The position numbers and the translations under genes were made by a program. The notes under the pieces were generated by a model. It was not told where the DNA came from, searched no databases, and saw only the letters and a program-made list of their open reading frames with translations. This document shows, in pieces, positions 8,934-55,073 of a stretch of DNA of 64,000 nt; positions within the stretch are counted from its first letter, which is position 1, and each line of letters begins with the position of its first letter. Source of the DNA: an uncultured Bacilli bacterium (GTDB taxonomy: Bacteria; Bacillota_I; Bacilli_A; RF39; UBA660); assembly GCA_910578855.1 (NCBI GenBank), contig CAJTRV010000001.1, positions 1,430-65,429 on the forward strand, in the 5' to 3' direction.

Positions 8934-8940
8934 AAAGATG

Positions 8941-9204
8941 CTATTTTGCATCCTTGTTATTCTCCATAAGTTTTTCATAACCATCAAAAAATTTTCTAAT
9001 GTCAAAATTATATTTTTGAGATAAAAAGAAAAGGGTATCTAGTGAAATTCCTGTATCTACATTAGGACTTTCAATGTGAGATATAAAACTTCTACTCATA
9101 TCTGTATCTTCTGCCATTTTTTCTTGAGACTTACCAATTATATCTTTTCTTATGGATTTCATATTTTGTCCTATAAGGGCGAAAAGTTCATAAGTATTTT
9201 TCAC
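8941..9204 (-). CDS. XRE-family helix-turn-helix transcriptional regulator
   Basis: SQEKMAEDTDMSRSFISHIE HTH motif. Small. Convergent/adjacent to the methyltransferase. Confidence 0.6.
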   Translation of the reverse strand: MKNTYELFALIGQNMKSIRKDIIGKSQEKMAEDTDMSRSFISHIESPNVDTGISLDTLFFLSQKYNFDIRKFFDGYEKLMENNKDAK

Positions 9205-10386: not shown

Positions 10387-10974
10387 ATGTTACAAGTTAG
10401 TAGAGCAAATAATCTTAAAATTCCAAAAACAATAGAAAATATTAGTGGAAATTTAAATAGTGTTGATGATAAGGTTGCAGTAAAACAAGCAATAGCTACA
10501 GCAAACAATCAAAAATTTGATAAGAAAAAAGTAAAAGAAAATGAAGAAAAGGATATGGAATTAGAAAGAATAGAAAAAATTCCATTTAATGCAAATGATT
10601 TAATGGTTATCACTGTTGTAAAAAAGCTAGGTGCTTATATAATTGCTGTTACTGAAAAATCTCCAGCTAAATATAGAGGTGTATTTGTTAATCGTATGCA
10701 AAATCTATCTTTAGAAATACTAGAATTACTTCTTCAAGCTAACTTTGTAAGAATTGATAGTTTAGATAATAAGAAAAAGAGAGAAGAATATCAAAAAGAT
10801 GCAATAATAAAATTAAAAATGTTAGGATATATAGCTATGGTGGCAGAAAATTCTAAATGTATATTATCTAAACAGTTTAAACAAATTTCGATTCAAATTG
10901 GTGAATCTATTAATTTAATAGCTGCTTGGAAAAAAAGCGACGATAATAGATGGAGTAGTCGTACAAATAATTAA
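10387..10974 (+). CDS. avd: Avd-like four-helix-bundle accessory protein of the DGR (possible true start at internal Met near 10555)
   Basis: C-terminal region KDAIIKLKMLGYIAMVAENSKCILSKQFKQISIQIGESINLIAAWKK resembles the Avd / 'S23 ribosomal-protein-like' four-helix-bundle family (LxxLGYI...EIGKML pattern). Basic. Located immediately upstream of TR-RT. Confidence 0.45.
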   Translation: MLQVSRANNLKIPKTIENISGNLNSVDDKVAVKQAIATANNQKFDKKKVKENEEKDMELERIEKIPFNANDLMVITVVKKLGAYIIAVTEKSPAKYRGVFVNRMQNLSLEILELLLQANFVRIDSLDNKKKREEYQKDAIIKLKMLGYIAMVAENSKCILSKQFKQISIQIGESINLIAAWKKSDDNRWSSRTNN

Positions 10975-11065
10975 AGGATTTTAAACCGAAAGGTTTTTAA
11001 TTAAGTAAATAATTTATTCTAGCGGCTTTACTTGTGTTGCGCCTTTGGCGCAGGGCTTTGTATTT

Positions 11066-11144
11066 GTCCGCGCGGTCAATAAGAATGGTAATAGGAACAA
11101 CAAATATAGGTATAAACGCAATGGTGCTGTTCGCCCAGATTTGC
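11066..11144 (+). repeat. DGR template repeat (TR)
   Basis: 79-bp near-identity to 12682..12760. Differs at 12 positions, all adenines in this copy (AAT/AAG/AAC/AAA codons). Confidence 0.85.
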
Positions 11145-11353
11145 TTTTGAAGAGATTTAATAATCTAAAAAACAGGTCAGAGAAATATATTTTAAGTAAA
11201 ATATATCAGAACTTTAAAGCAAAGGAATTATTTACTTTTCTAACCGCTATAATAGTGCGGTGGATAAATTTTTAACACCCACACAAGCAACGATAAAAAT
11301 ATCTTTGCAAGTTATAAGGGGTGTTTTTTTATTATTTATGGGGAGGATTTTTT

Positions 11354-12382
11354 ATGAAATTAGAAGAGATATTTACATTTGAAAATATATATAATGCCCA
11401 TAAAAAATGTAGAAGATCAAAACAACATAAAGGAGAAGTAATAAGATTTGAAGTAAATATTTCTGAAAATATTTGCAAATTACAAAAGGAAATAATATCA
11501 AAGAAATATAAAGTAGGAAAATATAAGGAATTTATAATATATGAACCAAAAGAAAGATTAATACAAGCTCTTCCATATAGAGATAGAATTGTATTAAGAT
11601 GTTTTTGCGATAATGTTTTAATTCCAAAGATTGAAAAAAAACTAATAAATGATAATGTTGCTTGTAGAAAAGGTAAAGGAACAAAATATGGAATGGATAG
11701 ATTGAAATATTTTTTACAAAAAGAATATTTTAAGAATAACGATAATAAAGTTTATTATTTGAAATGTGATATTCGTAAATATTTTCCTAGTATTAACCAC
11801 AATATTTTAATAAATAATCTAAAAAGGATTGGCTTTTCAGATGATGAATTTTGGTTTATAAACAAAATTATAAATGAACAACCTGATAATTTAGAAAAGG
11901 GTTTAGCATTAGGAAATCAATCAAGTCAATGGTTTGCTTTATATTATCTTGATAAAATTGATAGATTAATCAAAGAAAAACTTAAAGTTAAATGTTATGT
12001 TAGATATATGGATGATTTTATTTTAATTCATCGTGATAAAAAATATCTACAATATTGTTTGAAAATAATTAATAAAGTTTGTAATGAAGAATTAAATTTA
12101 GAACTTAATCAAAAAACTCAAATTGGTGTTGCCTATAATGGAATTGATTTTCTAGGATTTAATCATATTTTGACTGATAGTGGTAAAGTTATTAGAAAAC
12201 TTAGATTTTCATCTAAACAAAGAATGAGAAAACATATTAAAACTATAAAAAAACTTAAAGATAAATCTATAATTGATGAAGAATATGTTGGTATGAGAAT
12301 AAATGCTTTCAAAGCACATCTAAAATATTCTAATGAAAAAAGTATGGATAAATTATTATCAAATTTAGATAAAAACCTATAA
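11354..12382 (+). CDS. Diversity-generating retroelement reverse transcriptase
   Basis: RT motifs LKCDIRKYFPSINH (motif 3) and YVRYMDDFILI (YxDD). DGR-specific LGNQSSQ (I/LGxxxSQ in place of the group II intron QGxxxSP). About 340 aa. No maturase or endonuclease domains. RBS ggggagg precedes ATG 11354. Confidence 0.85.
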   Translation: MKLEEIFTFENIYNAHKKCRRSKQHKGEVIRFEVNISENICKLQKEIISKKYKVGKYKEFIIYEPKERLIQALPYRDRIVLRCFCDNVLIPKIEKKLINDNVACRKGKGTKYGMDRLKYFLQKEYFKNNDNKVYYLKCDIRKYFPSINHNILINNLKRIGFSDDEFWFINKIINEQPDNLEKGLALGNQSSQWFALYYLDKIDRLIKEKLKVKCYVRYMDDFILIHRDKKYLQYCLKIINKVCNEELNLELNQKTQIGVAYNGIDFLGFNHILTDSGKVIRKLRFSSKQRMRKHIKTIKKLKDKSIIDEEYVGMRINAFKAHLKYSNEKSMDKLLSNLDKNL

Positions 12383-12447
12383 AATTCAAAAAATAGTAAT
12401 AAAAAAATGAATTTATATGGTAAAATATAACTGTGGTGATGATTTAA

Positions 12448-14373
12448 ATGTATAATAATCAAGATTTAACTTTATTGTCGGAAGGACAAATTTGGGGGAA
12501 TGGTAATGAAGCCCAATTAGAAGTAATTAGAAAATATGGAACTAAGGCAGCAATTACAGATTTATGTGTTTTGACTGGTAGCTATTTATGTGAAGATACG
12601 GATTATAATATAGATGAAGATAGTTCATTAAAAGGTAGAACTAGTTGGTTTTGGACTAGATCTGATGATAATGACAATGATGTCCGCGCGGTCGATCGGG
12701 ATGGTACTAGGGACCACGAATGTAGGTATGAACGCATTGGTGCTGTTCGCCCAGCTTTGCAATCTTCTGTAATCTTTTCTCAAATCTCCCCGAACAGAGT
12801 GAGGGGATACAACGGAACTGAAGAAGTAGAATATGGTGAATATCCACAATATGCTGCTGATTCAAGAATGCAAAGTATATTAGAATCAGAATATAATAGG
12901 GGAATGAATAAAACAGGAAGAAGTTATACTTTTGATTCAGTAAAATATGACGATTATGATACTGGCTTTAAACCAGTGACTTATGAAGAATATGAATATC
13001 AAGGAAAAAAATATATTCGCATAAGGGCAAATTCTGATTTTGGTGGAAATAAATTTAAACTTTCAAATGGTATTGAATATAGAGATGGTGATTATGTTTG
13101 GGTAGAAGTATCACCTGTAAAATGGTTAATTGATGATAGAACAGGAATATTAATTTCAAAAAGAGGATTAGTTTCTGGAATAAGATTTCTTGATAAAAGA
13201 ACTAATTATAAAGGTGATTTTAGTAGAACAGAAATGAAGGAATATCTTGATAGATATATGATACGCGATTTAACTCAGACAGCAACATTTACTCGTGTTC
13301 AAGATATGACACCAGAAGAAAAAGCTCAATTTGAAGAAGAAAGAAAGCAAGCTGAAAAAAGAAGAAATCCTTATGGTTTAAAATTTGGACAAGTTAGTGA
13401 AGAAGAAATTATTAAAGGTGCAATAGAAAGTGGTGTTGCAGTATTCTTACATGGGCCTTCATCAGAAGGTAAATCTGCAAGAGTAAAGCAAATAGATCCT
13501 ACTTGTGAAATAATATATCTTCGTAATGCTACACCAGAAAGTTTAAATGGTAAAAGTGTATATAATCAATCAACAGGTGAGATGATGGATGTTCCACCAA
13601 CTTGGTTAAAGAAATTACAAGAAAAATGTGAAAAGGAACCTGATAGACTTCATGTAGTATTCTTTGATGAAATAACAAATGCACTACCTAGCATTCAAGG
13701 TATAGCATTTAATATAGTATTAGATAGAGAAGTTAATGGTATATGGAAATTGCCAGATAATGCTAGAATCGTTGCAGCAGGAAATGATATGAAAGATTCA
13801 TTAGCTGCAAATCAATTAGCAGAACCATTATTTAATAGATTTGCCCATGTTTATATTAAAACAACTACTGAGGGTTGGTTAAAATGGGCAAGTGAACATA
13901 ATATACATCCTGCTATTTACTCATATATTGCTTATAAAAAGGGCGAAACATTAAGAAGTAAATATGATGGTGAAAAACCTAACGCAGATCCAAGAAAATG
14001 GGAAATGGCTTCAAAAATGTTATATGCAACAGGAAGCCCTGAAATGTTAAGGGCGTTAGTTGGAGAGGATATTACAAGAGAATTTGTAGAATTCTGTAAT
14101 CAACAAGTTATAACATTAGATGATGTTATAAATGGAAATTATACCGATAGAGATATACAGGCATTAAATACTGCTGAAAGATATGCAACAACTATGGGAT
14201 TATCACAAGTTGATGATAATAACTTAGAAAAAGTAAGGGGTTTTGTTGCAGGTTTAGGAGCAGAGTTTGGAGCAATTTTTGATGCTTTATGGACACATGG
14301 CGATGAAAGTAAATTGGAAAGACTTGCAGAAGCAAAACTTGCTGAAATGCCAGGAGGAGGTATAAGAAGATAA
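12448..14373 (+). CDS. DGR target protein: N-terminal C-type-lectin-like variable domain fused to a MoxR/AAA_5-class AAA+ ATPase
   Basis: VR-encoded SWFWTRS...VRAVDRDGTRDHECRYERIGAVRPAL matches the DGR CLec consensus (WW.RS ... GVRP). The C-terminal half has Walker A LHGPSSEGKS, Walker B HVVFFDEITNA, sensor-1 RIVAAGN and PLFNRFAHVYI (the MoxR 'ALLDRF' motif). No signal peptide. Confidence 0.8.
   Translation: MYNNQDLTLLSEGQIWGNGNEAQLEVIRKYGTKAAITDLCVLTGSYLCEDTDYNIDEDSSLKGRTSWFWTRSDDNDNDVRAVDRDGTRDHECRYERIGAVRPALQSSVIFSQISPNRVRGYNGTEEVEYGEYPQYAADSRMQSILESEYNRGMNKTGRSYTFDSVKYDDYDTGFKPVTYEEYEYQGKKYIRIRANSDFGGNKFKLSNGIEYRDGDYVWVEVSPVKWLIDDRTGILISKRGLVSGIRFLDKRTNYKGDFSRTEMKEYLDRYMIRDLTQTATFTRVQDMTPEEKAQFEEERKQAEKRRNPYGLKFGQVSEEEIIKGAIESGVAVFLHGPSSEGKSARVKQIDPTCEIIYLRNATPESLNGKSVYNQSTGEMMDVPPTWLKKLQEKCEKEPDRLHVVFFDEITNALPSIQGIAFNIVLDREVNGIWKLPDNARIVAAGNDMKDSLAANQLAEPLFNRFAHVYIKTTTEGWLKWASEHNIHPAIYSYIAYKKGETLRSKYDGEKPNADPRKWEMASKMLYATGSPEMLRALVGEDITREFVEFCNQQVITLDDVINGNYTDRDIQALNTAERYATTMGLSQVDDNNLEKVRGFVAGLGAEFGAIFDALWTHGDESKLERLAEAKLAEMPGGGIRR
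12682..12760 (+). repeat. DGR variable repeat (VR) inside the target gene (codons about 79-104)
   Basis: Matches TR 11066..11144. Substitutions occur only where TR has A (a->g/c/t). Confidence 0.85.
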
Positions 14374-14765
14374 TGGAAAATAAAAAGGAAATATTATTGT
14401 CATATATAAGGACAAATGTTGCACCAATATTAGTTGATTTTATATCTGGTAAAGATTTGAATGGTGCAGTAGTATTGCCTGCTAATGTTGATGTTAAAGA
14501 ATTAAATGGTCATTATGATGGAGCAGATTTTATGCCACCAAAATGGCTTAATGAGATATTAAGTACAAATGCTAGTAAAATATTAGTAATAGATAAAATT
14601 GATACTATTTCAAAAGAAGAACAATTAAAATTTTGTGAATTATTAGAACATAGAAAAATATCTACATTTGAATTACCAAAAAGTTGTGTGATAATTGTAA
14701 CAGCAAACGAAATAAATAAAGATAAGATAAACGAAGAAATATTCTCATTAGTTGCACGAATTTGA
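14373..14765 (+). CDS. AAA-like domain fragment protein (Walker-B/sensor-1-like motifs, no Walker A). Translationally coupled to the DGR target.
   Basis: TAATG overlap at 14371-14375. KILVIDKID (hhhhD), CVIIVTAN (sensor-1-like). No GxxGxGKS. Confidence 0.4.
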   Translation: MENKKEILLSYIRTNVAPILVDFISGKDLNGAVVLPANVDVKELNGHYDGADFMPPKWLNEILSTNASKILVIDKIDTISKEEQLKFCELLEHRKISTFELPKSCVIIVTANEINKDKINEEIFSLVARI

Positions 14766-14775
14766 GGTATAAATT

Positions 14776-16386
14776 ATGAAATATGATATTGCAGCGTTAA
14801 AAAGAAAAATGCTTGTTAAATATCCCTTTTTTGGGAGTGTGGTAGCAAGTGTAGGTTATAAAGAAAACAAAGATATACCAACCGCAGGTACAGATGGAGA
14901 AACAATTTACTATAATCCTGAATATTTGGAAAGTTTAAGTGTTGAAGAACAGACTTTTATATTTGCTCATGAAGTATGTCATATTGCATTTAATCATATA
15001 TTAAGAAGTGAAGATAAAGATCCAGATTTATGGAATATTGCTACTGATGGTGTTATTAATCAATTTTTGAAACGAGATGGATTAAAAATGGCGCCGGGTG
15101 GAGTTGATATGGCAGAAGCTATTAATTACGATGCTGAACAGTTATATGAAAAACTATTACAAGAAAAACAGCAAAGACAACAGCAACAACAAACTGGACA
15201 AGGTAATAGTCAAAATCAACAAGGTAATCAGCAACAAAATCAACAACAAAGCGGTGGTAGTAGTCAAGGCGAAAATAACCAACAACAACCCCAATCACAA
15301 CAACAGAGTGGCGATTCACAAAATCAAGAACAAAATCAAGAAAATCAACAACAAAGTAGTGGTGGGGGGCAAAGTGGTGATGACCAACAGCAATCTCAAT
15401 CACAACAACAAGGTAGTTCAGGTGATGAAAGTTCACAAGAGCAAGATAAGCAATCACAAGAACAAAGCAGTGGTGGAACTGGGAAAGATTCACAAGAGGA
15501 AGATAAATCAAAACAAGATGTTGGACATGATACTCACAGCATGTGGGAACAAGCAGTTAAAAAGCATAAAGAGCAGCAAGAAAAATCTGATAAAAAAGAG
15601 AGTTTATTAGATAAGTTGTTAGGGAAAGATAAAGATAAAAAAGATAAAGAAAAAACTGAGCTTGAAAAGAAACAAGAAGAACTTGCAGAAATGGGAGAAA
15701 AAGATGCTTTTAAGAAAAATCTTGAAGATAAGAAAAAGCAACTTGAAGAATTAAAAGAAGCAATTTCTAAACAAGCATCACAAGCAGGAACTTCAACAAA
15801 TAGAGATGTTAGAACAGTTAATGATATTGGTACTGCAAAACCAATAGTTGATTGGCGATATATTTTAAGAGAAGCAATTAAATATGATGTAGATTGGTCA
15901 TATAAAAATGCTACATTAGAAGATGGTGTTGTTACTGCTAATTTAGAAGAACAACCAATGCCAGAAACTGAAATTGTTCTTGATACAAGTGGCTCAATAA
16001 ATGAAGTATTATTAAAGAACTTTTTAAGAGAATGTAAAAATATATTACAACATACTAAATTAAAAGTAGGATGTTTTGATACAGAATTTTATGGATTTCA
16101 AGAGATTAGAGCAGAAGAAGATATAGAAAATATGCGATTTGAAGGTGGTGGCGGTACTGACTTTGATGTCGCTGTAGGTGCTTTCTCAAGGCGAGTTGAA
16201 AATAAAATAATATTTACTGATGGAGAAGCTTCAATGCCGGATATGCCACTTGATGCAATATGGATAGTATTTGGTGGTGAAAGAATTAATCCTAAAGGTG
16301 GTAAAGTAATTCACATTACACCAGAACAATTGGATAGATTATATTCATACGAAATTGGGAGTGAAACCAGAGGAAGATCAAGATAA
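14776..16386 (+). CDS. Metallopeptidase-like (DUF2201-type HExxH) + von Willebrand factor A domain protein with central Q/S/N-rich disordered linker
   Basis: HEVCHIAFNH (HExxH), long polyQ/S segment, C-terminal VWA with MIDAS DTSGS...T...D. This is the family that pairs with MoxR AAA+ ATPases. Confidence 0.7.
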   Translation: MKYDIAALKRKMLVKYPFFGSVVASVGYKENKDIPTAGTDGETIYYNPEYLESLSVEEQTFIFAHEVCHIAFNHILRSEDKDPDLWNIATDGVINQFLKRDGLKMAPGGVDMAEAINYDAEQLYEKLLQEKQQRQQQQQTGQGNSQNQQGNQQQNQQQSGGSSQGENNQQQPQSQQQSGDSQNQEQNQENQQQSSGGGQSGDDQQQSQSQQQGSSGDESSQEQDKQSQEQSSGGTGKDSQEEDKSKQDVGHDTHSMWEQAVKKHKEQQEKSDKKESLLDKLLGKDKDKKDKEKTELEKKQEELAEMGEKDAFKKNLEDKKKQLEELKEAISKQASQAGTSTNRDVRTVNDIGTAKPIVDWRYILREAIKYDVDWSYKNATLEDGVVTANLEEQPMPETEIVLDTSGSINEVLLKNFLRECKNILQHTKLKVGCFDTEFYGFQEIRAEEDIENMRFEGGGGTDFDVAVGAFSRRVENKIIFTDGEASMPDMPLDAIWIVFGGERINPKGGKVIHITPEQLDRLYSYEIGSETRGRSR

Positions 16387-16518: not shown

Positions 16519-17979
16519 TTGAGTGATAGTATGAGAATAGGTTTAGATATAGATAATGTTGTAACCAATTTTGATAAAAAAATGTTAGAAGAATTTTATA
16601 AAGAAGATAAAAACAAAAGAAATAAGGGAATAGTTAATCCAGAAGGAAATTGGATTAAAAATATGTTTGATTGGTCAAATGATGAAATAGAGACCTTTTT
16701 TAATGACAATATGCAAGAATTTGCTAAAGAGTTAGAACCTAGAGAAGATGCTAAATATTATATGGATAAATTATTGGATGATGGGCATAGTTTATATTTA
16801 ATTTCACATAGAGCTTATCCACATTATACTGAACCATATAAAATTACTGAAAACTGGTTAAAAAAAAATAATATAAATTATACAAAATTAATACTTTCTA
16901 AAACTACAAATAAAAGTAAAGAATGTAAGGAAAATAACATTGATGTAATGTTTGATGATGTTAGAACTAATTGTCATCAATTGCAAGAAAGTGGTATTAA
17001 ATGTTATTTAATGGGAACAAACTATAATCAAAAAAAATTAGATGGATTAAAAGTAGTGAAAAATTGGAAGGAACTATATGAGGTGGTTAATAAAATGGAA
17101 AAGAAAAAAGTAATATTAGATACAGATATGTATAATGAAATAGATGATCAATTTGCATTAACTTATTTAATTAAATCATTGAATATTTTTGATTTACAAG
17201 CAATCACAATAGCTCCATTTTCAAAAAGTGGTTATGCTAATACTATGACTATTGAAGATGGAACAGAAAAAAGTTATGAGACAACTTTAAAAATATTAGA
17301 TATGTTGGATAAATCTGAATATAAAGATTTAGTATATAAGGGTGCAATAAAATATATGAAAGATAGTGAAGAAGATAATGATGCTGTAAATAAAATAATT
17401 GAAATATCAAATAAAAATGAAAAAACAACTATTTTAGCTATTGGAGCAATAACAAATGTTGCATTAGCTATTAAGAAAGCACCTGAAATTATTAGCAAAA
17501 TAAATGTAGTATGGTTAGGTGGTAATACTTTCTTAACTAAAGATAATAGTGAATTTAATTTTAGACAAGATATAAAAGCAGTACAAACAGTATTTAATTC
17601 AGGCGTTGAATTAGTTGTTATTCCATGTAGAAATGTTGCTTCTAATTTATCAACTACAATTTATGAATTACAACATTATTTAAGTGAGAATACAGAATTA
17701 AATAAATATTTAATTGATATTTTTATTAAGTGCAAAAAATCATTTATGAAAGAACCTAAAGATGAAATAGGTTCTAGTAAAACATTATGGGATCTAAGTG
17801 CAATAGCTTATGAGATAAATGCAGATTGGTTTAAATCTGAAATGATAAGTTGTCCTAATGTTCTTGATAATGGTTTATATGAACAAACAGAAAACAGACA
17901 TAATGTAATATTTGTGAATGATTTATATCGCAATAAAATATATCAAGATTTCTTTATTAAAATGGGATATAAAATTTAG
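16519..17979 (+). CDS. Fusion protein: HAD-type 5'(3')-deoxyribonucleotidase-like domain + inosine-uridine-preferring nucleoside hydrolase domain
   Basis: N-terminal GLDIDNVV (DxDxV HAD motif I). C-terminal LDTDMYNEIDDQFAL matches the nucleoside hydrolase DxDxxxDD signature. Confidence 0.6.
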   Translation: MSDSMRIGLDIDNVVTNFDKKMLEEFYKEDKNKRNKGIVNPEGNWIKNMFDWSNDEIETFFNDNMQEFAKELEPREDAKYYMDKLLDDGHSLYLISHRAYPHYTEPYKITENWLKKNNINYTKLILSKTTNKSKECKENNIDVMFDDVRTNCHQLQESGIKCYLMGTNYNQKKLDGLKVVKNWKELYEVVNKMEKKKVILDTDMYNEIDDQFALTYLIKSLNIFDLQAITIAPFSKSGYANTMTIEDGTEKSYETTLKILDMLDKSEYKDLVYKGAIKYMKDSEEDNDAVNKIIEISNKNEKTTILAIGAITNVALAIKKAPEIISKINVVWLGGNTFLTKDNSEFNFRQDIKAVQTVFNSGVELVVIPCRNVASNLSTTIYELQHYLSENTELNKYLIDIFIKCKKSFMKEPKDEIGSSKTLWDLSAIAYEINADWFKSEMISCPNVLDNGLYEQTENRHNVIFVNDLYRNKIYQDFFIKMGYKI

Positions 17980-18016
17980 AATAACTAGATACTAATATTG
18001 TGTAGAGGGTGATTAG

Positions 18017-18541
18017 ATGAAAGTATATATAGTAAGACATGGTCAAGTTTCACATAATGCTTTGAATCAATATAATACGAGTGATGAAGATTTAACAGAT
18101 TTAGGAATAAAGCAAGCAGAAGAATTAAGAAGCAAAATTCAAAATATACATTTTGATATTGTTATATCATCGCCATTATTAAGAGCTACTCATACAGAAT
18201 ACATACTTACAAATTATGATAATAGTATAATTACTGATGAAAGGTTAAGAGAAAGAAGCTGTGGTACTTTAAGTGGACAACCACTTGAAGTTACGAATAG
18301 AGAAGAATATTGGAATTATTATAGTGATGTTCAATATGGTATAAATGAAAATATACAAGATTTCTTTAAAAGAGTTTATAATTTTTTAGATGATCTTAAA
18401 ACAAAAGATTATAAAAGTGTTTTAATAGTTGCTCATAGTGGAGTTTCAAAAGCTTTTAGTGGTTATTTTGAAGGGATAAAGGATGGCAAATTTTTAAACA
18501 GAGGATTAAAAAATTGTGAAATTAAGGAGTATGAATTATGA
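18017..18541 (+). CDS. Histidine phosphatase superfamily (phosphoglycerate mutase-like) protein
   Basis: VRHGQ (RHG catalytic motif) at the N-terminus. About 175 aa. Confidence 0.65.
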   Translation: MKVYIVRHGQVSHNALNQYNTSDEDLTDLGIKQAEELRSKIQNIHFDIVISSPLLRATHTEYILTNYDNSIITDERLRERSCGTLSGQPLEVTNREEYWNYYSDVQYGINENIQDFFKRVYNFLDDLKTKDYKSVLIVAHSGVSKAFSGYFEGIKDGKFLNRGLKNCEIKEYEL

Positions 18542-19158
18542 AATTAACCAGTAAAGAAGCAAGAGAATTTTTAGAAAATGAAAGAGCCAATTTTGAAAAT
18601 CAAAGATGGATAAATCATAGTGTTTGTGTAGGAGATACTGCTGGTAAAATTGCTGAAGCTTTGTATAAAAAAGATATTAATGTAGATATTGATAAAACAA
18701 TTGCATTAGGGTATATTCATGATATTGGCAAAAAATTTAATGAACATGGAGGAGTATTTCCACATGCAATAAATGGGTATAACTATATTAAAGAATTAGG
18801 ATATGATGAAGAATATGCAAGTATTTGTATTAAACATTCATTTCTAAACAATGATATAGATTGTATATCAAACGATAGAGATGAAACTGATAAATCTAAT
18901 CCTAATTATAATTTTGTAAAAGAATATATAAGCAAAGAATATAGTATTGAGGAAAAAATAATTAATTTATGTGATTTAATGTGTATAACTAAAACATTAA
19001 CTGTAGAAAAAAGAATGATAGATTTATTACTAAGGCATGGAGTATTTAAAAAGACACATTATCATATAGAAGAAACTATGAAATTAAAAGAATATTTTGA
19101 TGATTTATTAGGATATAATTTATATGATTTATTTCCAGAAATTAAAGATAATCTATAG
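18538..19158 (+). CDS. HD-domain phosphohydrolase
   Basis: H...YIHDIGK (HD motif). ATGA overlap with the upstream gene. Confidence 0.55.
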   Translation: MKLTSKEAREFLENERANFENQRWINHSVCVGDTAGKIAEALYKKDINVDIDKTIALGYIHDIGKKFNEHGGVFPHAINGYNYIKELGYDEEYASICIKHSFLNNDIDCISNDRDETDKSNPNYNFVKEYISKEYSIEEKIINLCDLMCITKTLTVEKRMIDLLLRHGVFKKTHYHIEETMKLKEYFDDLLGYNLYDLFPEIKDNL

Positions 19159-19169
19159 TTGGTGGTATT

Positions 19170-19772
19170 ATGACTATAAAAGATATGAAACAAGCTGTTA
19201 AGCTTTTAGAAAATGAATGGGATTTGGGAGAAAAGGAATCGGGAGCATCAAGGCATCTATGTGCATGGATTTACTTGATGGAAATATTAGAAGAAACCGA
19301 ACAATTTGTGTATTATAGAGAGAATGGTAATCTTTTAGGATTTGCTGGATATTCTAATGATAAATCAAAAAAGCATCTATTAAAAAAGAAATTTTATTCA
19401 TTTATAAAAAAACAATTGTATAAAAGCAAAGAAATAAAAGATATAAAAGCATTACATGAGTATGAAGATAATTACTACTATGTACCAGATGAATTGAAAA
19501 ATTACTTTGATGGAGAAGTATCTATGCTAATAATTGATGAAAAAATAAGAGGCAAAGGAATTGGAAAAAAATTACTTTTAGAAGTATTCGCTCTAGCTAA
19601 AAAAGATAATATGAAAAATCTTCAAATACTAACTGATGATTCTTGCAATTATTATATATATGAGTCATTAGGATGTAAGAAAGTATATGAAACAGTAATA
19701 GAAAATAAAGAATATGGTAAATTAGGTAATATTACAAAGGAAACTGCTTATATTTATGAAAAAGTATTATAA
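19170..19772 (+). CDS. GNAT-family N-acetyltransferase
   Basis: IRGKGIGKKLL (acetyl-CoA binding motif A). Confidence 0.55.
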   Translation: MTIKDMKQAVKLLENEWDLGEKESGASRHLCAWIYLMEILEETEQFVYYRENGNLLGFAGYSNDKSKKHLLKKKFYSFIKKQLYKSKEIKDIKALHEYEDNYYYVPDELKNYFDGEVSMLIIDEKIRGKGIGKKLLLEVFALAKKDNMKNLQILTDDSCNYYIYESLGCKKVYETVIENKEYGKLGNITKETAYIYEKVL

Positions 19773-19889
19773 ATTAGTGAAATAATATTCCCTATGAAAA
19801 AGGATATAGTAAAAAATTAGAAAATAATTAGTTCTATTGACTAATTTATACTAAACTATTATAATAATCTACCGAAATGAGGCGATTTT

Positions 19890-20531
19890 ATGTCAAGAGA
19901 ACAAAATGTAATAAATTATTATGTTATATGTAATAGATTAAAAAATGTTATCAGAACTGGTTGGAAAAATTGGAATGTGCAAAGAGAAAGAATTGAAAGT
20001 GTTGCGGAGCATATATTTGGTGTTCAAATGCTTGCAATTGCAATGAAGTCAGAGTATCAATATGATGTTGATATAATGAAAGTTATATTTATGCTAGCGA
20101 TACATGAACTTGGTGAAACAGTTATAGGCGACTTAACTCAATTTGAAATATCCAAAGAGGAAAAGGAAAAATTAGAGCATGAAGCAGTGCATAGAATATT
20201 AGGCGGTTTATTAGATGGTAACCAAATTGAAGCATTATTTTTAGAATTTGATTCCCATAGTACAAAAGAATCTATGTTTGCATATCAATGTGATAAGTTG
20301 GAATGTGATTTACAAAGTAAATTATATGATGAAGAAGGTTGTGTTGATTTAGATAAACAGGATGGTAATGAAACAATGAAAAATTCAAGAGTTCAAGAAT
20401 TGTTAAAAACAGGTGCTTCATGGTCAACTATGTGGCTTCAATTTGGACAACAAGTTTATCCATACGATGATAATTTTAGAGCAGTTTCTAATTATGCTAT
20501 AAATAATGAAATAGGTCCAAAAAGGAAATAA
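19890..20531 (+). CDS. HD-domain 5'-deoxynucleotidase (YfbR-like)
   Basis: SVAEHIF...AIHELGETVIGDLT: the H..HE/D..D metal-binding pattern of YfbR-type HD hydrolases. Confidence 0.6.
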   Translation: MSREQNVINYYVICNRLKNVIRTGWKNWNVQRERIESVAEHIFGVQMLAIAMKSEYQYDVDIMKVIFMLAIHELGETVIGDLTQFEISKEEKEKLEHEAVHRILGGLLDGNQIEALFLEFDSHSTKESMFAYQCDKLECDLQSKLYDEEGCVDLDKQDGNETMKNSRVQELLKTGASWSTMWLQFGQQVYPYDDNFRAVSNYAINNEIGPKRK

Positions 20532-20550: not shown

Positions 20551-20591
20551 TGCAAACTTGCACAAAAACCAAAAAAATATGCAAAATTGCA
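20551..20591. promoter_or_regulatory. Two copies of inverted-repeat operator TGCAA-N2-TTGCA (tgcaaacttgca, tgcaaaattgca) overlapping a TTGACA -35-like element
   Basis: Seen directly. Same motif recurs at 21576..21587 and 24500..24531. Confidence 0.5.
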
Positions 20592-20657
20592 TTTTTTATA
20601 TTGACAAAAAACTTAAATTGTTATAGTATATAAAACAATTCAAAAGGGGGAGATTCT

Positions 20658-21521
20658 ATGTTAAATACTCAATCTATGAATCTTGATTTAATTAGAACCT
20701 TTGTAATTGTTGGTCAATCTAGGGATTATAATGACGCTGCTTCAAAGTTAAATATGGATAGATCTAATGTATCAAGACATATTAAAACTCTTGAAGAATT
20801 AATGGGAACTAAATTAATAAATAAAAATGCTAAAAACTATATTGAATTAACAGAAGATGGTAAGGTGTTATTTGATGGATATGAAAAAGCATACAATTTA
20901 TTATTTATTACTGAAAAGACATATTTACAAAATAAAGACTTAAATAGTGGTAAAATATCAATTGGTATTTCTAGTGATATAGAATCTAAAATTTTAATTG
21001 ATAAAATAGTAGATTTTAAAAAGAAATATGCTGATACAGCATTTAAAACAATAAATTTACCTTCAAAAAGTTTAGTAGAAAAGTTATCACATTATACACT
21101 TGACTTTGTTATAGATGAAAAATCAGATAGTTATAAGAAAAGTAGTGGTGTTAAATCTATAGATTTATTTGATGAAGAATACTGTCTAGTATATTCAAAA
21201 AATAATTTTGCTATTTCAGATATTTCAGATTTAAAAGATCTTTCATTTATATTACCTGTTAGTACAAAACAAGAAAGAAAATTATTTGAAGAATATTTAA
21301 GTGATAATCAAATAACAAGAAGATTATCTATAGAAACATCTAATTATTTTTCTTCAATCGAATATGCTAAGAATGGATTAGGAGTAGCTTTAGTTCCTAA
21401 AAGTATGATAGTTGATGAATTAGAAGTTTTTGATATTGATTTAAAAAAGACTATCACATTAAGTTATGTTGAGAATAATTTATCACCATCATCAAAAGAG
21501 TTTTTGAAAGAATTTAAATAA
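20658..21521 (+). CDS. LysR-family transcriptional regulator
   Basis: N-terminal HTH (LIRTFVIVGQSRDYNDAASKLNMDRSNVSRHIKTLEE) plus substrate-binding-domain-sized C-terminus. Confidence 0.7.
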   Translation: MLNTQSMNLDLIRTFVIVGQSRDYNDAASKLNMDRSNVSRHIKTLEELMGTKLINKNAKNYIELTEDGKVLFDGYEKAYNLLFITEKTYLQNKDLNSGKISIGISSDIESKILIDKIVDFKKKYADTAFKTINLPSKSLVEKLSHYTLDFVIDEKSDSYKKSSGVKSIDLFDEEYCLVYSKNNFAISDISDLKDLSFILPVSTKQERKLFEEYLSDNQITRRLSIETSNYFSSIEYAKNGLGVALVPKSMIVDELEVFDIDLKKTITLSYVENNLSPSSKEFLKEFK

Positions 21522-21575
21522 TATACTAAAAATATTTATAATCTAATTTCAATTTTGAAGTTAGATTTTTTTTAA

Positions 21576-21587
21576 TGCAATTTTGCA
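21576..21587. promoter_or_regulatory. Operator copy TGCAA-TT-TTGCA upstream of the radical SAM gene
   Basis: tgcaattttgca, followed by a ttgact/-10-like region. Confidence 0.45.
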
Positions 21588-21666
21588 TATACAATTGTAA
21601 AATTGACTGGATATATTTGGCAATAAAGATGTTAGAATAATCACTAATTAAAAAAGAGGTGATTTT

Positions 21667-22791
21667 ATGTCTGTAATTGAAATGCACTCTAGTTGGCTTG
21701 CTATTAATTCAATCGTTGGATGTCCTAATGGATGTAAATATTGTTTATTACAAGCTACTAATGATAATAATTGTTTACCTAAAGAATTAGCGACACCAGA
21801 AGAAGCAGTTAAGCAATTATTAGAGTACAAATATTATGACAAAGATATTCCAGTATGTTTATTGCCTAATACAGATGTTTTTGTAAATCCAAAGAATGTT
21901 AAATACTTATTAAAATTACTAGATGAGATTGAAAAAAATAATATATTAAATGATTTAATTATTATTACAAAATGTAAAATAACAGATGAAGTTATAATGA
22001 AGGTAAAAGGCTTGAAATCAAAAGGTCAAAATGTTGTTTTCTATATTAGTTATTCTGGATTAGGAAAAGAAATAGAACCTAGAATATCAGAGGAAATATT
22101 AAGAGATAATTTTAAAAAACTAAGTGAAAATGGTATTGATGTAATTCACTATTATAGACCATTTCTACCACAAAATTCAGATCCGGAAAAAATTAAAGAA
22201 ATTCTTGATTATGTTAATCAATATACTGATATTTCAGTAACAACTGGATTAGCTCTTATTGAAACATTCATAAATAAAATTGATTGTTGGGATGAAATAA
22301 AAGAAAATAAAGAAGCTAGTTTAAAAGCAAATTGTGTATGGCCTGAAAGTGCTTGGAATTATTTTAATAATAATTATTCTCATCCACAACAAATATTTCA
22401 AACTAATACTTGTGGATTAAATACTAAATTAAAAAGGCCTTCAACACAATACTATGGAACAGAAGAATGCTTAAAATATAATCATTGTAGCAAAGAGCAA
22501 AGAGAACGTTGTAGATTAGCTCATCAAAAGATAAGTGAAGATTTAATAAAGATGAGATGTTCATTACTATTAAATAAATTAGGATTTGATTCTAATAATG
22601 TTGAATATATTTTTGATAAATATGGAAGTTTGGAACTTAAAAATATAGATTTAAAGATTAGTGATGCTTCTTATTTATCATATAAATTGGGAACAAAAGT
22701 ATATGTCTCTACTAATAATATTGTTAAAGATACTTATAATTCAACTTTAAATGGTGCTAAGCCACTTGTTTTAAAGGCAGGTGTTAAATAA
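21667..22791 (+). CDS. Radical SAM enzyme (CxxxCxxC at residues 19-26); subclass unassigned
   Basis: CPNGCKYC near the N-terminus. About 375 aa. Coupled (TAATG overlap) to the downstream MazG-Nudix gene. Confidence 0.6.
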   Translation: MSVIEMHSSWLAINSIVGCPNGCKYCLLQATNDNNCLPKELATPEEAVKQLLEYKYYDKDIPVCLLPNTDVFVNPKNVKYLLKLLDEIEKNNILNDLIIITKCKITDEVIMKVKGLKSKGQNVVFYISYSGLGKEIEPRISEEILRDNFKKLSENGIDVIHYYRPFLPQNSDPEKIKEILDYVNQYTDISVTTGLALIETFINKIDCWDEIKENKEASLKANCVWPESAWNYFNNNYSHPQQIFQTNTCGLNTKLKRPSTQYYGTEECLKYNHCSKEQRERCRLAHQKISEDLIKMRCSLLLNKLGFDSNNVEYIFDKYGSLELKNIDLKISDASYLSYKLGTKVYVSTNNIVKDTYNSTLNGAKPLVLKAGVK

Positions 22792-24344
22792 TGAATGATA
22801 TTATTAAATTCTTAGATGTTCATTATGATGCTGCTTTAAAATTAGTGAGTGATTTTGATATAACAAAAAATAAAGAGTGGGATCCACAAATATATTTAAA
22901 TGAGTTATATGTACAATTAGGTCATGTTTATAATGTTTTATTTGCTAATGAAAATGTTAATGAAAATAAAAGAAAAATAGATAATTTAGGTGATGAATTA
23001 TCTGATGTATTACTACAATTAATTAATTTAGCAAGAGTGTTAAATATAGATATGTATGAAATAAAAGAATATAAAGATTATAAGTATGATGATTTAAATG
23101 GATTAACAATTCTTTTAGGACAACTTACAGAAGCAGTTATGGAAATATATGAATGTCGTTTTAAAAAGAATAGAGCAGATTTTGATACAAGTTATGACTT
23201 TGTAAAAGATAGATTGTATAAATTATTTATTATTACATACAAAATATCTAAAAAATATAAATTAAATATGATTAAAGAATTTGATGATATGTTAAAAGAT
23301 GCAAATGGATTCTTAGATAGATTTAGAAAAGGTAGTAAAAATAAAGTAGAATTTATAGATATATTTGATAAAGATGGTAATTTACTTGGTTATTGTGAAA
23401 AAAATAATGCTCATAAATTAGGATATTATCATAAGGTATTTGGTTGTTTAATATATAACAATAAAAAGAATAAAGTGTTTTTACAATTAAAGAATCCAAA
23501 TCATAATAAAGTAAATAAGAAACCACTTCTTGAAATAACAGCTGGTGGACACTTGATGTCAGGAGAAACAGTTAGAAATGGTGTAAGAGAAATAAAAGAA
23601 GAAACAGGATTAGATGTTGAGTATGAAAAATTAACATTTATAGAAGAAAGAACTTGTAATAAAACAATCACAAAAGATTATAAAATACATGAATTTCAAT
23701 ATTATTATGCAGTAGATTTAAAAATAAATGTTGAAGATTTTAAAAATTATGATCCAGAAGAAGTTATGGGGTTTGTTGAATTAGATATACATGATTTATT
23801 AAGGTTACTAAATAACAAGGTTAAAAGAATAAAAGGAAAAAGAGAAAATGGTAAAATAGTAAATGTTACTAAAGATGATTTAGATAAAGCATATATTAAG
23901 AATGGTTTATATCTATCTTTATTAACAAAATTAAATATTAAGAAGGGGGAAAAAGTCATGAATAATAAGCTTAAAAAATTATATAAATATACTAATAAAC
24001 AAATAAAGAAAAATCCAAATATGTATTATTTTGATGATGGTACAGTTTGTCAAAACCAAGACTATGAAAAAGATAATGTGAAATATTCGGTTATGAAAGT
24101 TAATACAGATATTAATACAAATAATTATTTAGTATATTTACTTATAATAAGTGGTAAAAAATCCATACCACAAATGTTAGTCAGAAGTTTCAAAACTGAT
24201 AGAGGAACAACAACATATTTTAATAAGTTATGTTCTTTAGTTGAGAAAAATACTAATCAAGATATTATTTCAAAATGTTATGATAAACTAATTGAAAGCA
24301 ATCCAAAACCAACTCCATTATTTAGTAGAATATTTAACCTGTAA
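22791..24344 (+). CDS. Fusion of MazG-like NTP pyrophosphohydrolase domain and Nudix hydrolase domain
   Basis: N-terminal LGDELSDVLLQLINLA (MazG EExxE-type helix). Central Nudix box GGHLMSGETVRNGVREIKEETGL (Gx5Ex7REUxEExGU). Confidence 0.65.
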   Translation: MNDIIKFLDVHYDAALKLVSDFDITKNKEWDPQIYLNELYVQLGHVYNVLFANENVNENKRKIDNLGDELSDVLLQLINLARVLNIDMYEIKEYKDYKYDDLNGLTILLGQLTEAVMEIYECRFKKNRADFDTSYDFVKDRLYKLFIITYKISKKYKLNMIKEFDDMLKDANGFLDRFRKGSKNKVEFIDIFDKDGNLLGYCEKNNAHKLGYYHKVFGCLIYNNKKNKVFLQLKNPNHNKVNKKPLLEITAGGHLMSGETVRNGVREIKEETGLDVEYEKLTFIEERTCNKTITKDYKIHEFQYYYAVDLKINVEDFKNYDPEEVMGFVELDIHDLLRLLNNKVKRIKGKRENGKIVNVTKDDLDKAYIKNGLYLSLLTKLNIKKGEKVMNNKLKKLYKYTNKQIKKNPNMYYFDDGTVCQNQDYEKDNVKYSVMKVNTDINTNNYLVYLLIISGKKSIPQMLVRSFKTDRGTTTYFNKLCSLVEKNTNQDIISKCYDKLIESNPKPTPLFSRIFNL

Positions 24345-24499
24345 GACCAAGTATCAGATTTACTATCAGATGAAGTATCAAATCAAGTATCAATTTTGGT
24401 ATTAGATTTTTGGGGGTAACAAATACCAGACATTCATGTTATACTTGTTATAAATAGGACGAACTTTGAAAAAAAGTCCTATTTTTTTGCCTTTTCGAG

Positions 24500-24531
24500 T
24501 GCAAATTTGCAATTTTATGTGCAAAATTGCA
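24500..24531. promoter_or_regulatory. Two operator copies TGCAA-N2-TTGCA (tgcaaatttgca, tgcaaaattgca) upstream of the first ArpU-like gene
   Basis: Seen directly. Followed by a ttgact ... taagat promoter-like pair. Confidence 0.45.
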
Positions 24532-24702
24532 AATAAACTCTTGACTTTTTCCAAAAAAGTTGTAAGATAAATGGCAATTATTTACATTAATTTGTAAGTA
24601 ACTATTGGGGTTTCTGGTGATTGTGGCGCATTTTAAAAGTTGTATTTTTCAAAGAGAGATTACTAGGACTTCATGTGATTTCTCTTTTTTGTTAAGTAGG
24701 GG

Positions 24703-25188
24703 GTGGATTTGCTCATGCAAGTAGAATTTAAAAAGAAGTACCTTGATGAATATGATCTAAAAGCAATTGTTAAAGCTGTATATAATTTGTTTGATGATTA
24801 TAATTACAAGAAAGCTATTGCACAAGAGTATTTAGATTCAATATATCAACATAGATTAACAGATAAACCTGAATATTCTAAATATCATAAGAAAATAGAT
24901 TCAACATACAATACAGTTGAAAAAAGGGACAAAGTAGTAAATTACCTTAATGAATTTGATAGAAAATTAGAATTTTTATTATCAACATTCACAGCAGAAG
25001 AAATGAAAATCTATAACCATAGTGTAATAGGGAGAGAACAAGATAAACAAATCAGGGATAGAATATGCAAAACTGATAGAACATATTATCCAATTAAAAA
25101 GAGCTGTTATGTTAAAATAGCACTTAGATTTGGATTGGTAGATGGTTTTACGAAGGATGTATTCGCGACTATTAGTCTATTTGACTAA
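24703..25188 (+). CDS. ArpU/RinA-like (sigma-70 region-4-like) small transcriptional regulator
   Basis: About 160 aa. C-terminal ...KKSCYVKIALRFG. Paralog of 25511..25960. Confidence 0.45.
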   Translation: MDLLMQVEFKKKYLDEYDLKAIVKAVYNLFDDYNYKKAIAQEYLDSIYQHRLTDKPEYSKYHKKIDSTYNTVEKRDKVVNYLNEFDRKLEFLLSTFTAEEMKIYNHSVIGREQDKQIRDRICKTDRTYYPIKKSCYVKIALRFGLVDGFTKDVFATISLFD

Positions 25189-25510: not shown

Positions 25511-25960
25511 ATGCCAAAAATTAAAGAACCAAAATTATATGATAAGGAAGTTTTAGAGGAATACAATTATCCTGAAACAAGGGAAATGGTATTACATTAT
25601 TTTTCAAAGTATAGAGCTTATAGTGTTAAGGTTGAAGAAATATGTGATTCTTATCAATCTCCATTGTCAAATGATTCAATGGGGATTTTTTCATCCAATA
25701 TAAGTGATCCAACTTCCAAGCGTGCTTTAAAAATAATAGAGTATAAGGAATATATTGATTATATGAATAAGCAATTTAAAGGTTTAAGATTAAGACTTAC
25801 ATCAGATGAAAAGATAATATTTAATTATTCAATATTATCAAAACATACTGATGAAGAATTGGCTGAAAAATTATCTATGGAAAAAAGTAGTATTTATCAT
25901 AGAAAGAAAAGCTGTTATATTAAAGTAGCTAAGTATTTTCATATAGAAGTCTTTAATTAA
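25511..25960 (+). CDS. ArpU/RinA-like small transcriptional regulator (paralog)
   Basis: C-terminal ELAEKLSMEKSSIYHRKKSCYIKVAKYF, paralogous to the upstream gene. Confidence 0.45.
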   Translation: MPKIKEPKLYDKEVLEEYNYPETREMVLHYFSKYRAYSVKVEEICDSYQSPLSNDSMGIFSSNISDPTSKRALKIIEYKEYIDYMNKQFKGLRLRLTSDEKIIFNYSILSKHTDEELAEKLSMEKSSIYHRKKSCYIKVAKYFHIEVFN

Positions 25961-54805: not shown

Positions 54806-55073
54806 TATGAAAGGATAAAAAGGGGGATAAAATTATGGAAAGGAATAAAATAGAAAAAAAGATAAATAAAATTACTTATAACTGTGAATATGAATTAAAA
54901 ACAGACAAGCCAGATTTAACAAAAGATGATTTAATCAAAATTTTCAATCAAAAATATTACAATTATATAAAAAGAAAAGAAAATCGCCTTTTTATATGCT
55001 GTAATTTTGATTAAAATACGTTATAATTTATATAGGCCTTATATTACGACTAAAAATGAGGAGACGATTTTTT

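Follow-up and report, generated by a model that had tools for sequence, protein, structure and literature searches.

A radical SAM enzyme of an unnamed family and its obligate MazG-like partner in a conjugative element of uncultured gut Bacilli

The DNA considered here is a stretch of 64,000 nucleotides, hereafter called the window, from contig CAJTRV010000001.1 of an uncultured Bacilli bacterium; it is AT-rich, with a G+C content of about 25%, and is matched by a 118-kb human-gut-style metagenome scaffold (ERZ28667134 scaffold_35). Its plus strand carries two overlapping open reading frames (ORFs), one coding for a radical S-adenosylmethionine (SAM) enzyme of 374 aa that belongs to an unnamed family (21667-22791), the other for a partner protein of 517 aa composed of a MazG-like, a Nudix and a C-terminal domain (22791-24344). 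As described in an initial annotation made from the sequence, stop and start codons overlap in TAATG, with base 22791 common to both genes; an overlap of 1, 4 or 17 nt is kept in related elements (L001, L012, L004, L011). The two genes form a co-transcribed, discrete bicistronic operon, which is preceded by a lysR gene (20658-21521; 287 aa, with the Pfam HTH_1 and LysR_substrate domains) and followed by the gene of an ArpU-like transcriptional activator (24703-25188; PHROG 248, with support from synteny), both on the plus strand; the latter is the first gene after the operon and precedes the conjugation genes.

The 374-aa protein is a member of the radical SAM superfamily, in agreement with the initial annotation. 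It shows the cluster motif CPNGCKYC at residues 19-26 (C19-x3-C23-x2-C26), a match to Pfam Radical_SAM (PF04055; 38.3 bits against a cut-off of 29.5, E 2e-9) and a partial TIM-barrel fold in the AlphaFold2 model (predicted local distance difference test, pLDDT, 95.5); neither SPASM nor any other domain was detected in it with Pfam. An exhaustive HMMER scan of 1.84 billion protein cluster representatives returned 365 family members at E ≤ 1e-3, and 69 of them at E ≤ 1e-30. C19, C23 and C26 are invariant in all 96 full-length representatives, across which Y25, K102, E137, H161, R164, P165 and N170 are also invariant or nearly so. The same representatives share a second cysteine set, formed by C249 (96/96), C274 and C282 (95/96 each) and C268 (65/96), which in the model is located in the helical subdomain that follows the barrel. 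Since this is where other radical SAM enzymes hold their auxiliary clusters, the three or four cysteines probably form an auxiliary iron-sulfur or metal site.

The subfamily of the enzyme, for which the initial annotation had proposed a classification by hidden Markov models (HMMs), could be narrowed in part: on sequence grounds the family appears to lie in the SplB/COG1533-like clade, in no named family. Models of the COG1533 clade are the only named families matched by 40 members, and only weakly: PA0069 by 26, Rv2578c by 15, mobile pair B by 11 and SplB by 1-2, with a best E-value of 1e-8. The two SplB models, TIGR04070 and TIGR03886, are matched by one member each (E ~3e-4 to 3e-3), and neither of them by the protein of the window, which reaches 16.7 and 20 bits with the named COG1533 families against cut-offs of 360-410 bits; membership in SplB or in the named COG1533 families was therefore rejected, the scores lying far below the curated cut-offs. 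A profile search against the PDB revealed that the cluster loop, GCPNGCKYCLLQ, resembles that of SplB, GCMGHCHYCFLQ, the pattern GCxxxCxYC(F/L)LQ being common to the SplB/COG1533 clade and to the family of the window; besides this loop, single-sequence and profile searches against the PDB gave nothing significant, and identity to solved structures is at most 15%. The window family differs from SplB/COG1533 by the added invariant set C249/C274/C282 and by its obligate MazG-like partner.

Among other known systems, viperin and its prokaryotic counterparts (pVip), to which the initial annotation had compared the pair, were rejected: no PADLOC pVip hit, no hit to the viperin NCBIfam HMM and no specific fold match were obtained. 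The fold matches viperin no better than unrelated radical SAM enzymes, the C-terminal domain differs, and the partners in the window family are MazG-like and Nudix domains. PADLOC gave no match for either protein of the pair, for the neighbouring nucleotide-hydrolase cluster described below, or for the fusions of the enzyme with MazG or NTP_transferase domains; PHROGs offered just one family of unknown function and one generic Nudix family for the pair. No description was found in the literature searched on the pairing, on the functions of COG1533 families and on the plasmid pFRL6. The pairing is thus rated as an uncharacterised family and architecture within radical SAM nucleotide pathways.

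The partner protein was modelled with AlphaFold from 28 homologues (pLDDT 89) and is divided into three parts, all encoded on the plus strand. The first (aa 1-184; 22791-23342), defined by profile and model, is an all-alpha domain folded as a seven-helix bundle, in which E38, Q42 and D68-E69-x-x-D72 are invariant and H45 and E114 nearly so. The initial annotation had read a MazG-like N-terminus here, and this reading holds with reservations. Pfam matches at residues 52-93 stay below threshold (MazG 17.8 bits against 22, MazG-like 16.7 against 27), and a precomputed PF12643 match exists in just one of 63 relatives. Conversely, the profile of the domain, with the fusion copies included, matches in the PDB only MazG-type all-alpha nucleoside triphosphate (NTP) pyrophosphatases, namely 4qgp (E 0.003), 5ie9, YpjD, iMazG and DCTPP1; the E-values are marginal, and it is the consistency of the matches that supports assignment to the MazG superfamily. 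The helical bundle with a conserved (D)ExxD helix is common to MazG, YpjD, iMazG, DCTPP1 and the window domain. However, MazG proteins measure ~100 aa, whereas this domain has ~184 aa and seven helices, is always linked to a radical SAM enzyme, and replaces the first MazG motif, ExxE, with Q42xxH45, the second motif being kept as E69xxD72.

The Nudix domain (aa ~185-385; 23343-23945) is defined by Pfam (NUDIX at residues 213-339, 40.2 bits against a cut-off of 21.1, E 4e-10), by sequence profile and by Foldseek, which gives a probability of 1.0 to many Nudix structures. The initial annotation was right about the domain, but the box is not canonical as it had claimed: GGHLMSGE-TVRNGV-REIKEETGL corresponds to GX5EX6REUXEEXGU instead of the consensus GX5EX7REUXEEXGU. 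The X6 spacing is found in 27 of 28 homologues and requires a one-residue gap in every alignment to solved Nudix proteins; the REx2EE catalytic residues and all signature residues are present in the window. The best solved matches are type-I isopentenyl pyrophosphate (IPP) isomerases (IDI), E. coli YfcD, DR0079 and AtNUDX1 (Foldseek E 8e-9 to 3e-7), and YfcD is matched in sequence as well by the profile of the family, including the N-terminal strand and the His motif; the model thus places the domain in a putative IDI/YfcD-like structural clade. The identity with a type-I IPP isomerase was discarded (NF002995, 23.4 bits against a cut-off of 127), the likeness being in fold only, and the position that we take, by eye, to be that of the IDI catalytic Cys is presumably Gly or Ala here. 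The domain also differs from IDI-like Nudix proteins by the X6 box and by its placement between the MazG-like domain and an orphan one. Both the MazG-like and the Nudix domain belong to their superfamilies by fold, and each departs from the defining motif.

The third part (aa 386-517; 23946-24344), which the initial annotation did not contain and structure prediction brought out together with the helical bundle and the Nudix fold, is modelled as four beta strands and two helices, and no relatives were detectable in profile and Pfam searches. A DUF1851/Tdi1-like identity was considered and rejected (E 0.13 to one PDB chain, no consistent Pfam support in 16 members). Its distribution follows the conjugative-element clade; in L011 a gene of its own encodes it (132 aa, 39% identity), and partner variants of ~390 aa exist without it. 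In a chromosomal clade of the family, separate genes likewise code for the MazG-like part (~181 aa) and for the Nudix part (~212 aa). Since its three domains occur as separate genes elsewhere, the partner is modular.

The gene neighbourhood was counted in 49 species-level genome loci with a near-full enzyme gene, the denominators being the loci with enough flanking sequence. A MazG-like domain lies directly downstream of the radical SAM gene in 46 of 48 loci and nearby in the other two; a lysR gene is found upstream on the same strand in 38 of 42, a Nudix domain within 3.5 kb in 35 of 44, and an ArpU-like gene downstream in 22 of 37. The HMM search of the representatives also revealed fusions in both orders: three proteins have the MazG-like domain before the radical SAM enzyme (P0215, P0216, P0229), and seven or eight have it after, including P0222, P0253, P0261, P0273, P0267, P0265 and P0251. 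P0215 and P0216, found with the 517-aa protein as query, are 37% identical to each part. No such fusion was seen for the Nudix or the C-terminal domain; an NTP_transferase domain is fused directly to the radical SAM enzyme in some relatives. Because of the adjacency counts and the two-way fusions, the core of the module is the radical SAM enzyme with the MazG-like domain, in an obligate pairing, of which LysR and Nudix are frequent components; in the lineage of the window the Nudix and C-terminal domains are add-ons fused to the MazG-like domain.

Interrupted copies of the module were observed in loci of metagenome-assembled genomes (MAGs), L072-L075 and L049. The radical SAM gene of L073 is cut after about residue 118, and the MazG-like part of L049 after about residue 49, each being followed by a segment like the C-terminal part (DUF4368) of a serine recombinase; L074 joins residues 1-58 of the radical SAM enzyme to residues 74-180 of MazG, and L072 consists of two N-terminal fragments. 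The module may be an insertion target, or may simply decay.

Downstream of the operon, the window contains genes for a single-stranded DNA-binding protein (SSB), a VirB4-like protein, an M23 peptidase, a primase, a VirD4-like coupling protein and a large serine recombinase (55056-57113), and the same backbone occurs with differing left flanks in L004, L009, L011 and L012. With a type IV secretion ATPase, a coupling protein, a recombinase, and a conserved gene order between differing flanks, this is an integrative conjugative element. The gene pair is a fixed part of the backbone of this conjugative element of uncultured gut Bacilli: unlike variable cargo, the module has a fixed position and its divergence tracks that of the backbone. 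The order in the conjugative elements is LysR, enzyme, partner, one or more ArpU-like proteins, small ORFs, a SpaA-type adhesin, SSB, a pilin-like protein and VirB4; in one lineage a sortase accompanies the adhesin. The close relatives all come from uncultured gut MAGs labelled Bacilli, 'Tenericutes', Candidatus Coprovivens or Erysipelotrichaceae, the animals sampled being rabbit, goat, mouse and human. The region had no match among plasmid and phage records by Megablast, nor did tblastn against phages give one.

Some further observations concern the element. A second, paralogous ArpU-like gene stands in tandem with the first (25511-25960; PHROG 248), many related elements having a single copy. 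A 531-aa ORF at 6193-7788 was considered as a recombinase marking the element boundary and was rejected, as it encodes an ATP-binding cassette (ABC) exporter. The same LysR-radical SAM-MazG/Nudix-ArpU layout is present in three IMG/VR contigs catalogued as viral (L085-L087), which are either misclassified elements or an indication that the element family is phage-like in part.

The operon has a control region of its own (21575-21661; this and the following signals are all on the plus strand). It begins with a perfect palindrome, ATGCAATTTTGCAT (21575-21588), which holds a TGCAA-N2-TTGCA core copy at 21576, and continues with a second box, TTGTAAAATTGAC (21595-21607), an extended -10-like element, TGTTAGAAT (21630-21638), and a strong Shine-Dalgarno sequence, AGAGGTG (21655-21661), in front of the radical SAM gene; the layout is kept in the aligned lysR-enzyme spacers of related elements. 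Two copies of the TGCAA-N2-TTGCA palindrome precede lysR (20551-20592; copies at 20551-20562 and 20580-20591), paired as in related elements and followed by a promoter-like site, TTGACA-17-TAGTAT (20601-20629). Two more stand before the ArpU-like gene (24500-24511 and 24520-24531), in a position that related elements also keep, with the promoter-like TTGACT-16-TAAGAT after them (24541-24568). The core TGCA-W4-TGCA is found four times in 64 kb against 0.22 expected, which was never seen in 100 shuffles; with a relaxed N2 centre the window has five perfect copies (20551, 20580, 21576, 24500, 24520). The palindrome marks only three promoters in the window, those of lysR, of the radical SAM operon and of the ArpU-like gene, and of the 118 motif hits in 958 kb of related loci about 110 coincide with one of these positions; most loci of conjugative elements have it before the radical SAM gene. 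Elements whose enzyme is as little as 56-63% identical still have the three-promoter operator; in the related loci scanned, the chromosomal clade lacks the motif.

The dyad would most parsimoniously be bound by LysR, since LysR is the only regulator always present, and the arrangement leads us to propose that the operon is expressed when transfer is switched on, through the operator common to lysR and the ArpU-like activator. LysR-type regulators, TciR and BisR, reportedly control transfer of the conjugative element ICEclc. The likeness consists in a regulator of the LysR family at the head of the transfer region, with a presumed operator before the transfer activator; the differences are in the host phylum, in the type of activator, ArpU-like here, and in the regulator, which here is tied to an enzyme operon also found without a conjugative element.

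Three other signals flank these genes on the plus strand. A terminator-like hairpin with a T-run after lysR (21540-21573) is a tentative call, read directly from the sequence and missed by the consensus scan. Five AGTATCA-type repeats with an exact 12-bp spacing (24348-24407), which could be a protein-binding array, come right behind the stop codon of the 517-aa ORF, and the operon ends at a terminator-like 9-bp hairpin, AAATAGGAC/GTCCTATTT, with a T7 run (24452-24491; z -1.95, a marginal value).

In the window, lysR is preceded by a nucleotide-hydrolase cluster (16519-20531) of (deoxy)nucleotide-catabolic genes, coding for an NT5C+IU_nuc_hydro fusion and for His_Phos_1, HD, GNAT and HD_3/YfbR-like proteins. 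The initial annotation had linked the pair to this cluster under shared operator motifs. The sharing of the motif proved true for lysR, the radical SAM operon and the ArpU-like gene, but a common operator was rejected for the cluster, as no TGCAA-N2-TTGCA copy stands ahead of it, and the link itself did not survive: the NT5C-IUNH, HD and HD_3 genes are found in none of the 49 species-level loci, and among related loci the cluster is seen only on the contig of the window. The cluster is local cargo, outside the radical SAM-MazG module.

Outside the conjugative elements of gut Bacilli, the family occurs in other genomic contexts. In the chromosomal clade (42-53% identity), the module is situated between AlkD-like, cyclophilin and thioredoxin genes on one side and SufC-SufBD-SufS-SufU genes on the other. 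Two operons with fusions contain additional nucleotide enzymes and carry, respectively, a methyltransferase-like protein, CYTH, a P-loop protein, the MazG-radical SAM fusion, NTP_transferase and Nudix (L010), and LysR, the radical SAM-MazG fusion, an HprK-like P-loop protein and Nudix (L017). Members on Streptomyces plasmids are full-length, 30-35% identical, score ~400 bits with the family HMM and have 23 of 23 signature residues. In pFRL6 of Streptomyces sp. F12 (L080; NC_023286, 65366-82466), the radical SAM homologue belongs to a cluster directly upstream of Tra genes, in the order MazG, two dCTP deaminases, a cytidine deaminase, a methyltransferase, a UTP-glucose-1-phosphate uridylyltransferase (UDP-glucose pyrophosphorylase), the enzyme, a glycosyltransferase and HAD; such a cluster resembles phage pathways of base hypermodification or pathways of cytosine nucleosides. 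In other Streptomyces plasmids a GT4 glycosyltransferase, a class II aldolase and a MurA-like enolpyruvyl transferase precede the enzyme, with Nudix after it in one case. Each of the five contexts, the conjugative elements and the sister group described next included, is centred on nucleotides or nucleotide-sugars.

A sister group, 24-32% identical (P0281, P0289, P0291, P0295, P0298, P0301, P0302, P0306, P0312, P0319, P0327, P0331, P0333, P0340), carries an unannotated domain of ~200 aa immediately before the radical SAM core, and in many of them TIR, deoxyribosyltransferase-like or TCAD9+APH domains stand ahead of this domain; in L016 the gene adjoins a TIR-WD40 gene. That the ~200-aa domain is a diverged MazG was rejected by HMM, and PADLOC matched only the TIR parts. 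The TIR-type sister group is a candidate for an uncatalogued conflict system.

The fusions in both orders, the adjacency seen throughout, the neighbourhoods centred on nucleotides in three phyla and the conservation of the operator lead to the interpretation that we favour, to which we give a probability of roughly 45%: the pair may be a two-component nucleotide-processing enzyme, radical SAM and MazG-like, controlled by LysR and expressed with the transfer activator. The radical SAM enzyme would work with, and probably in complex with, a divergent domain of MazG-type NTP pyrophosphatases. The latter would bind a (deoxy)NTP or another nucleoside-diphosphate-linked compound, probably of a pyrimidine; the radical SAM enzyme would abstract a hydrogen from the bound nucleotide and transform it; and the MazG-like and Nudix domains would strip pyrophosphate or cleave the diphosphate, leaving a modified nucleoside monophosphate. 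The product could be a modified nucleotide for the DNA or the precursor pool of the element, a ligand of LysR, or a toxic analogue. The nucleotide as the class of substrate, the formation of a complex and the use of the product are what we infer. The general idea of a modified-nucleotide pathway, put forward in the initial annotation, fits the MazG-like partner and fusions and the nucleotide-enzyme neighbours.

In its working the proposed system would resemble known pairs, since nucleotide-acting radical SAM enzymes are known to team with a partner, as viperin, which converts NTPs to ddhNTPs, does with kinases, and OxsB, which is B12-dependent, with OxsA; the nucleoside-antibiotic pairs OxsB/OxsA (oxetanocin) and PolH/PolJ with PolA (octosyl acid) likewise combine a nucleotide-acting radical SAM enzyme with a phosphohydrolase. 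The Streptomyces family members are found directly after a MurA-like gene, as PolH is after PolA/NikO (PMC5365060). PolH has its motif, C225/C229/C232, in the middle of the protein and a single [4Fe-4S] cluster (PMC5365060); the motif of the window enzyme is at C19-C26 and an extra cysteine set is present, and membership in PolH/NikJ was rejected on this architecture, the distinction being drawn from the description of those enzymes.

Several points weigh against the proposed nucleotide-processing role or its tie to transfer. The nearest named relatives of the family, SplB, which acts on a thymine dimer in DNA with a catalytic Cys/Tyr relay, and Rv2578c, point to DNA and not to free nucleotides. 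Two canonical acidic metal ligands are missing in the MazG-like domain, where Q42 and H45 stand, so that hydrolysis is not assured; the catalytic residues of the Nudix domain are degenerate in P0208 and P0194, and the whole domain is absent from about a fifth of the loci. The chromosomal copies beside the suf operon indicate a function that is not specific to conjugation, the exact operator motif is absent in some sub-clades of the conjugative elements, and the palindrome may be bound by a regulator other than LysR.

The sequence affinities themselves suggest damage control of DNA or of the nucleotide pool, in which an SplB-like enzyme would repair a DNA lesion, for example on the transferred single strand, the MazG-like and Nudix domains would sanitise damaged (d)NTPs, and LysR would sense the stress. 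The affinities are to the COG1533 'DNA repair photolyase' clade only, and the loop motif is common to SplB; MazG and Nudix are classic house-cleaning folds, and the chromosomal copies have in their vicinity, besides the suf operon, genes for thioredoxin and for an AlkD-like protein of DNA-alkylation repair. Rv2578c is also reported to belong to the LexA regulon of Mycobacterium tuberculosis (PMC3381160). Nevertheless, the fusions with an NTP-binding domain, which exist in both orders, speak for a common small-molecule substrate, and relatives are fused or adjacent to NTP_transferase, glycosyltransferases, MurA-like proteins, dCTP deaminases and TIR, not to repair genes. All the COG1533 family scores are 10-20 times below the cut-offs, and we know of no counterpart of the second cysteine set in SplB. 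On balance a role in damage control seems unlikely, though it deserves to be kept in mind.

That lysR, the enzyme operon and the arpU-like gene have one operator in common, across the element family, would also suit a signal circuit, in which the enzymes make or destroy a nucleotide-derived co-inducer of LysR and so gate the ArpU-like activator and conjugation. LysR accompanies the enzymes whether the context is conjugative or chromosomal, and regulators of this type usually sense a metabolite of the pathway under their control. However, a diffusible product acting as LysR ligand is postulated only, as is the identity of the operator binder, and in the chromosomal versions no downstream target other than the operon is obvious; we regard such a circuit as rather improbable.

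No more probable is that the module is a conflict system carried as cargo, which would either make a toxic or chain-terminating nucleotide in the manner of viperin, with MazG/Nudix for self-protection, or serve anti-defence by destroying a nucleotide immune signal in the recipient. The fusions of the sister group to TIR, deoxyribosyltransferase-like and TCAD9+APH domains, with the TIR-WD40 neighbour in L016, speak for it, as does the presence of the module on mobile elements in two phyla; the logic would be that of pVip systems and of OxsB/OxsA. The ssb gene, a hallmark of leading regions, is 5.6 kb downstream of the module. Against this, PADLOC hits neither protein, nor the fusions beyond their TIR parts; the position is fixed and the divergence tracks the element backbone; stable chromosomal copies exist beside suf genes; the TIR-fused proteins are only 24-32% identical and have a partner domain other than MazG; and the module is absent from phage records. 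Finally, a non-nucleotide role, as maturase of a ribosomally synthesised and post-translationally modified peptide (RiPP) or as activase of a glycyl radical enzyme, with MazG-Nudix as an unrelated housekeeping neighbour, is scarcely credible, since the MazG-like partner is found throughout and recurs in fusions with the enzyme, Pfam shows no SPASM or other domain beyond Radical_SAM, and no glycyl radical enzyme gene, the partner expected for an activase of the pyruvate formate-lyase activating enzyme (PFL-AE) type, was found in any neighbourhood examined, nor is a precursor peptide gene conserved nearby.

Returning to a two-component nucleotide-processing enzyme, a more specific and frankly speculative version, to which we would lend little weight, is that mobile elements in two phyla, conjugative elements of gut Bacilli and conjugative plasmids of Streptomyces, might deploy new radical SAM chemistry on pyrimidine (deoxy)nucleotides at the time of transfer. 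The aim could be, for instance, that hypermodification of the DNA being transferred, or of its pool of precursors, protects against restriction in the recipient. A LysR switch would couple this chemistry to the conjugation activator, and the MazG-like domain would serve as the nucleotide-presenting subunit. Viperin, QueE, MoaA, OxsB and PolH are all radical SAM enzymes that act on nucleotides, and in each case unfamiliar chemistry has come to light, often together with new biology: antiviral nucleotides, cofactors and antibiotics are among the results. The compact unnamed family defined here is marked by its obligate MazG-like partner, by the second cysteine site and by neighbourhoods centred on nucleotides, which makes the search for a substrate tractable, and culturable carriers, such as the Streptomyces hosts of pFRL6 and other plasmids, make experiments possible although the host of the window is uncultured. 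The three-promoter operator ties the enzyme operon to a conjugation activator in a widespread family of gut mobile elements, which points to horizontal gene transfer in the gut microbiome being controlled through a metabolite, or prepared for at the level of nucleotides.

Two other regions of the window can be mentioned. At 10387-16386, a bAvd-like gene (10387-10974), a reverse transcriptase gene (11321-12382), a 641-aa ORF, a 130-aa ORF and a gene for a DUF2201 metallopeptidase/VWA-like protein form what looks like a candidate diversity-generating retroelement or another system based on reverse transcriptase. A C5 cytosine DNA methylase gene is found at 7867-8763, and just downstream of it, at 8938-8951, there is a copy of the palindrome with one mismatch, ATGCTATTTTGCAT.

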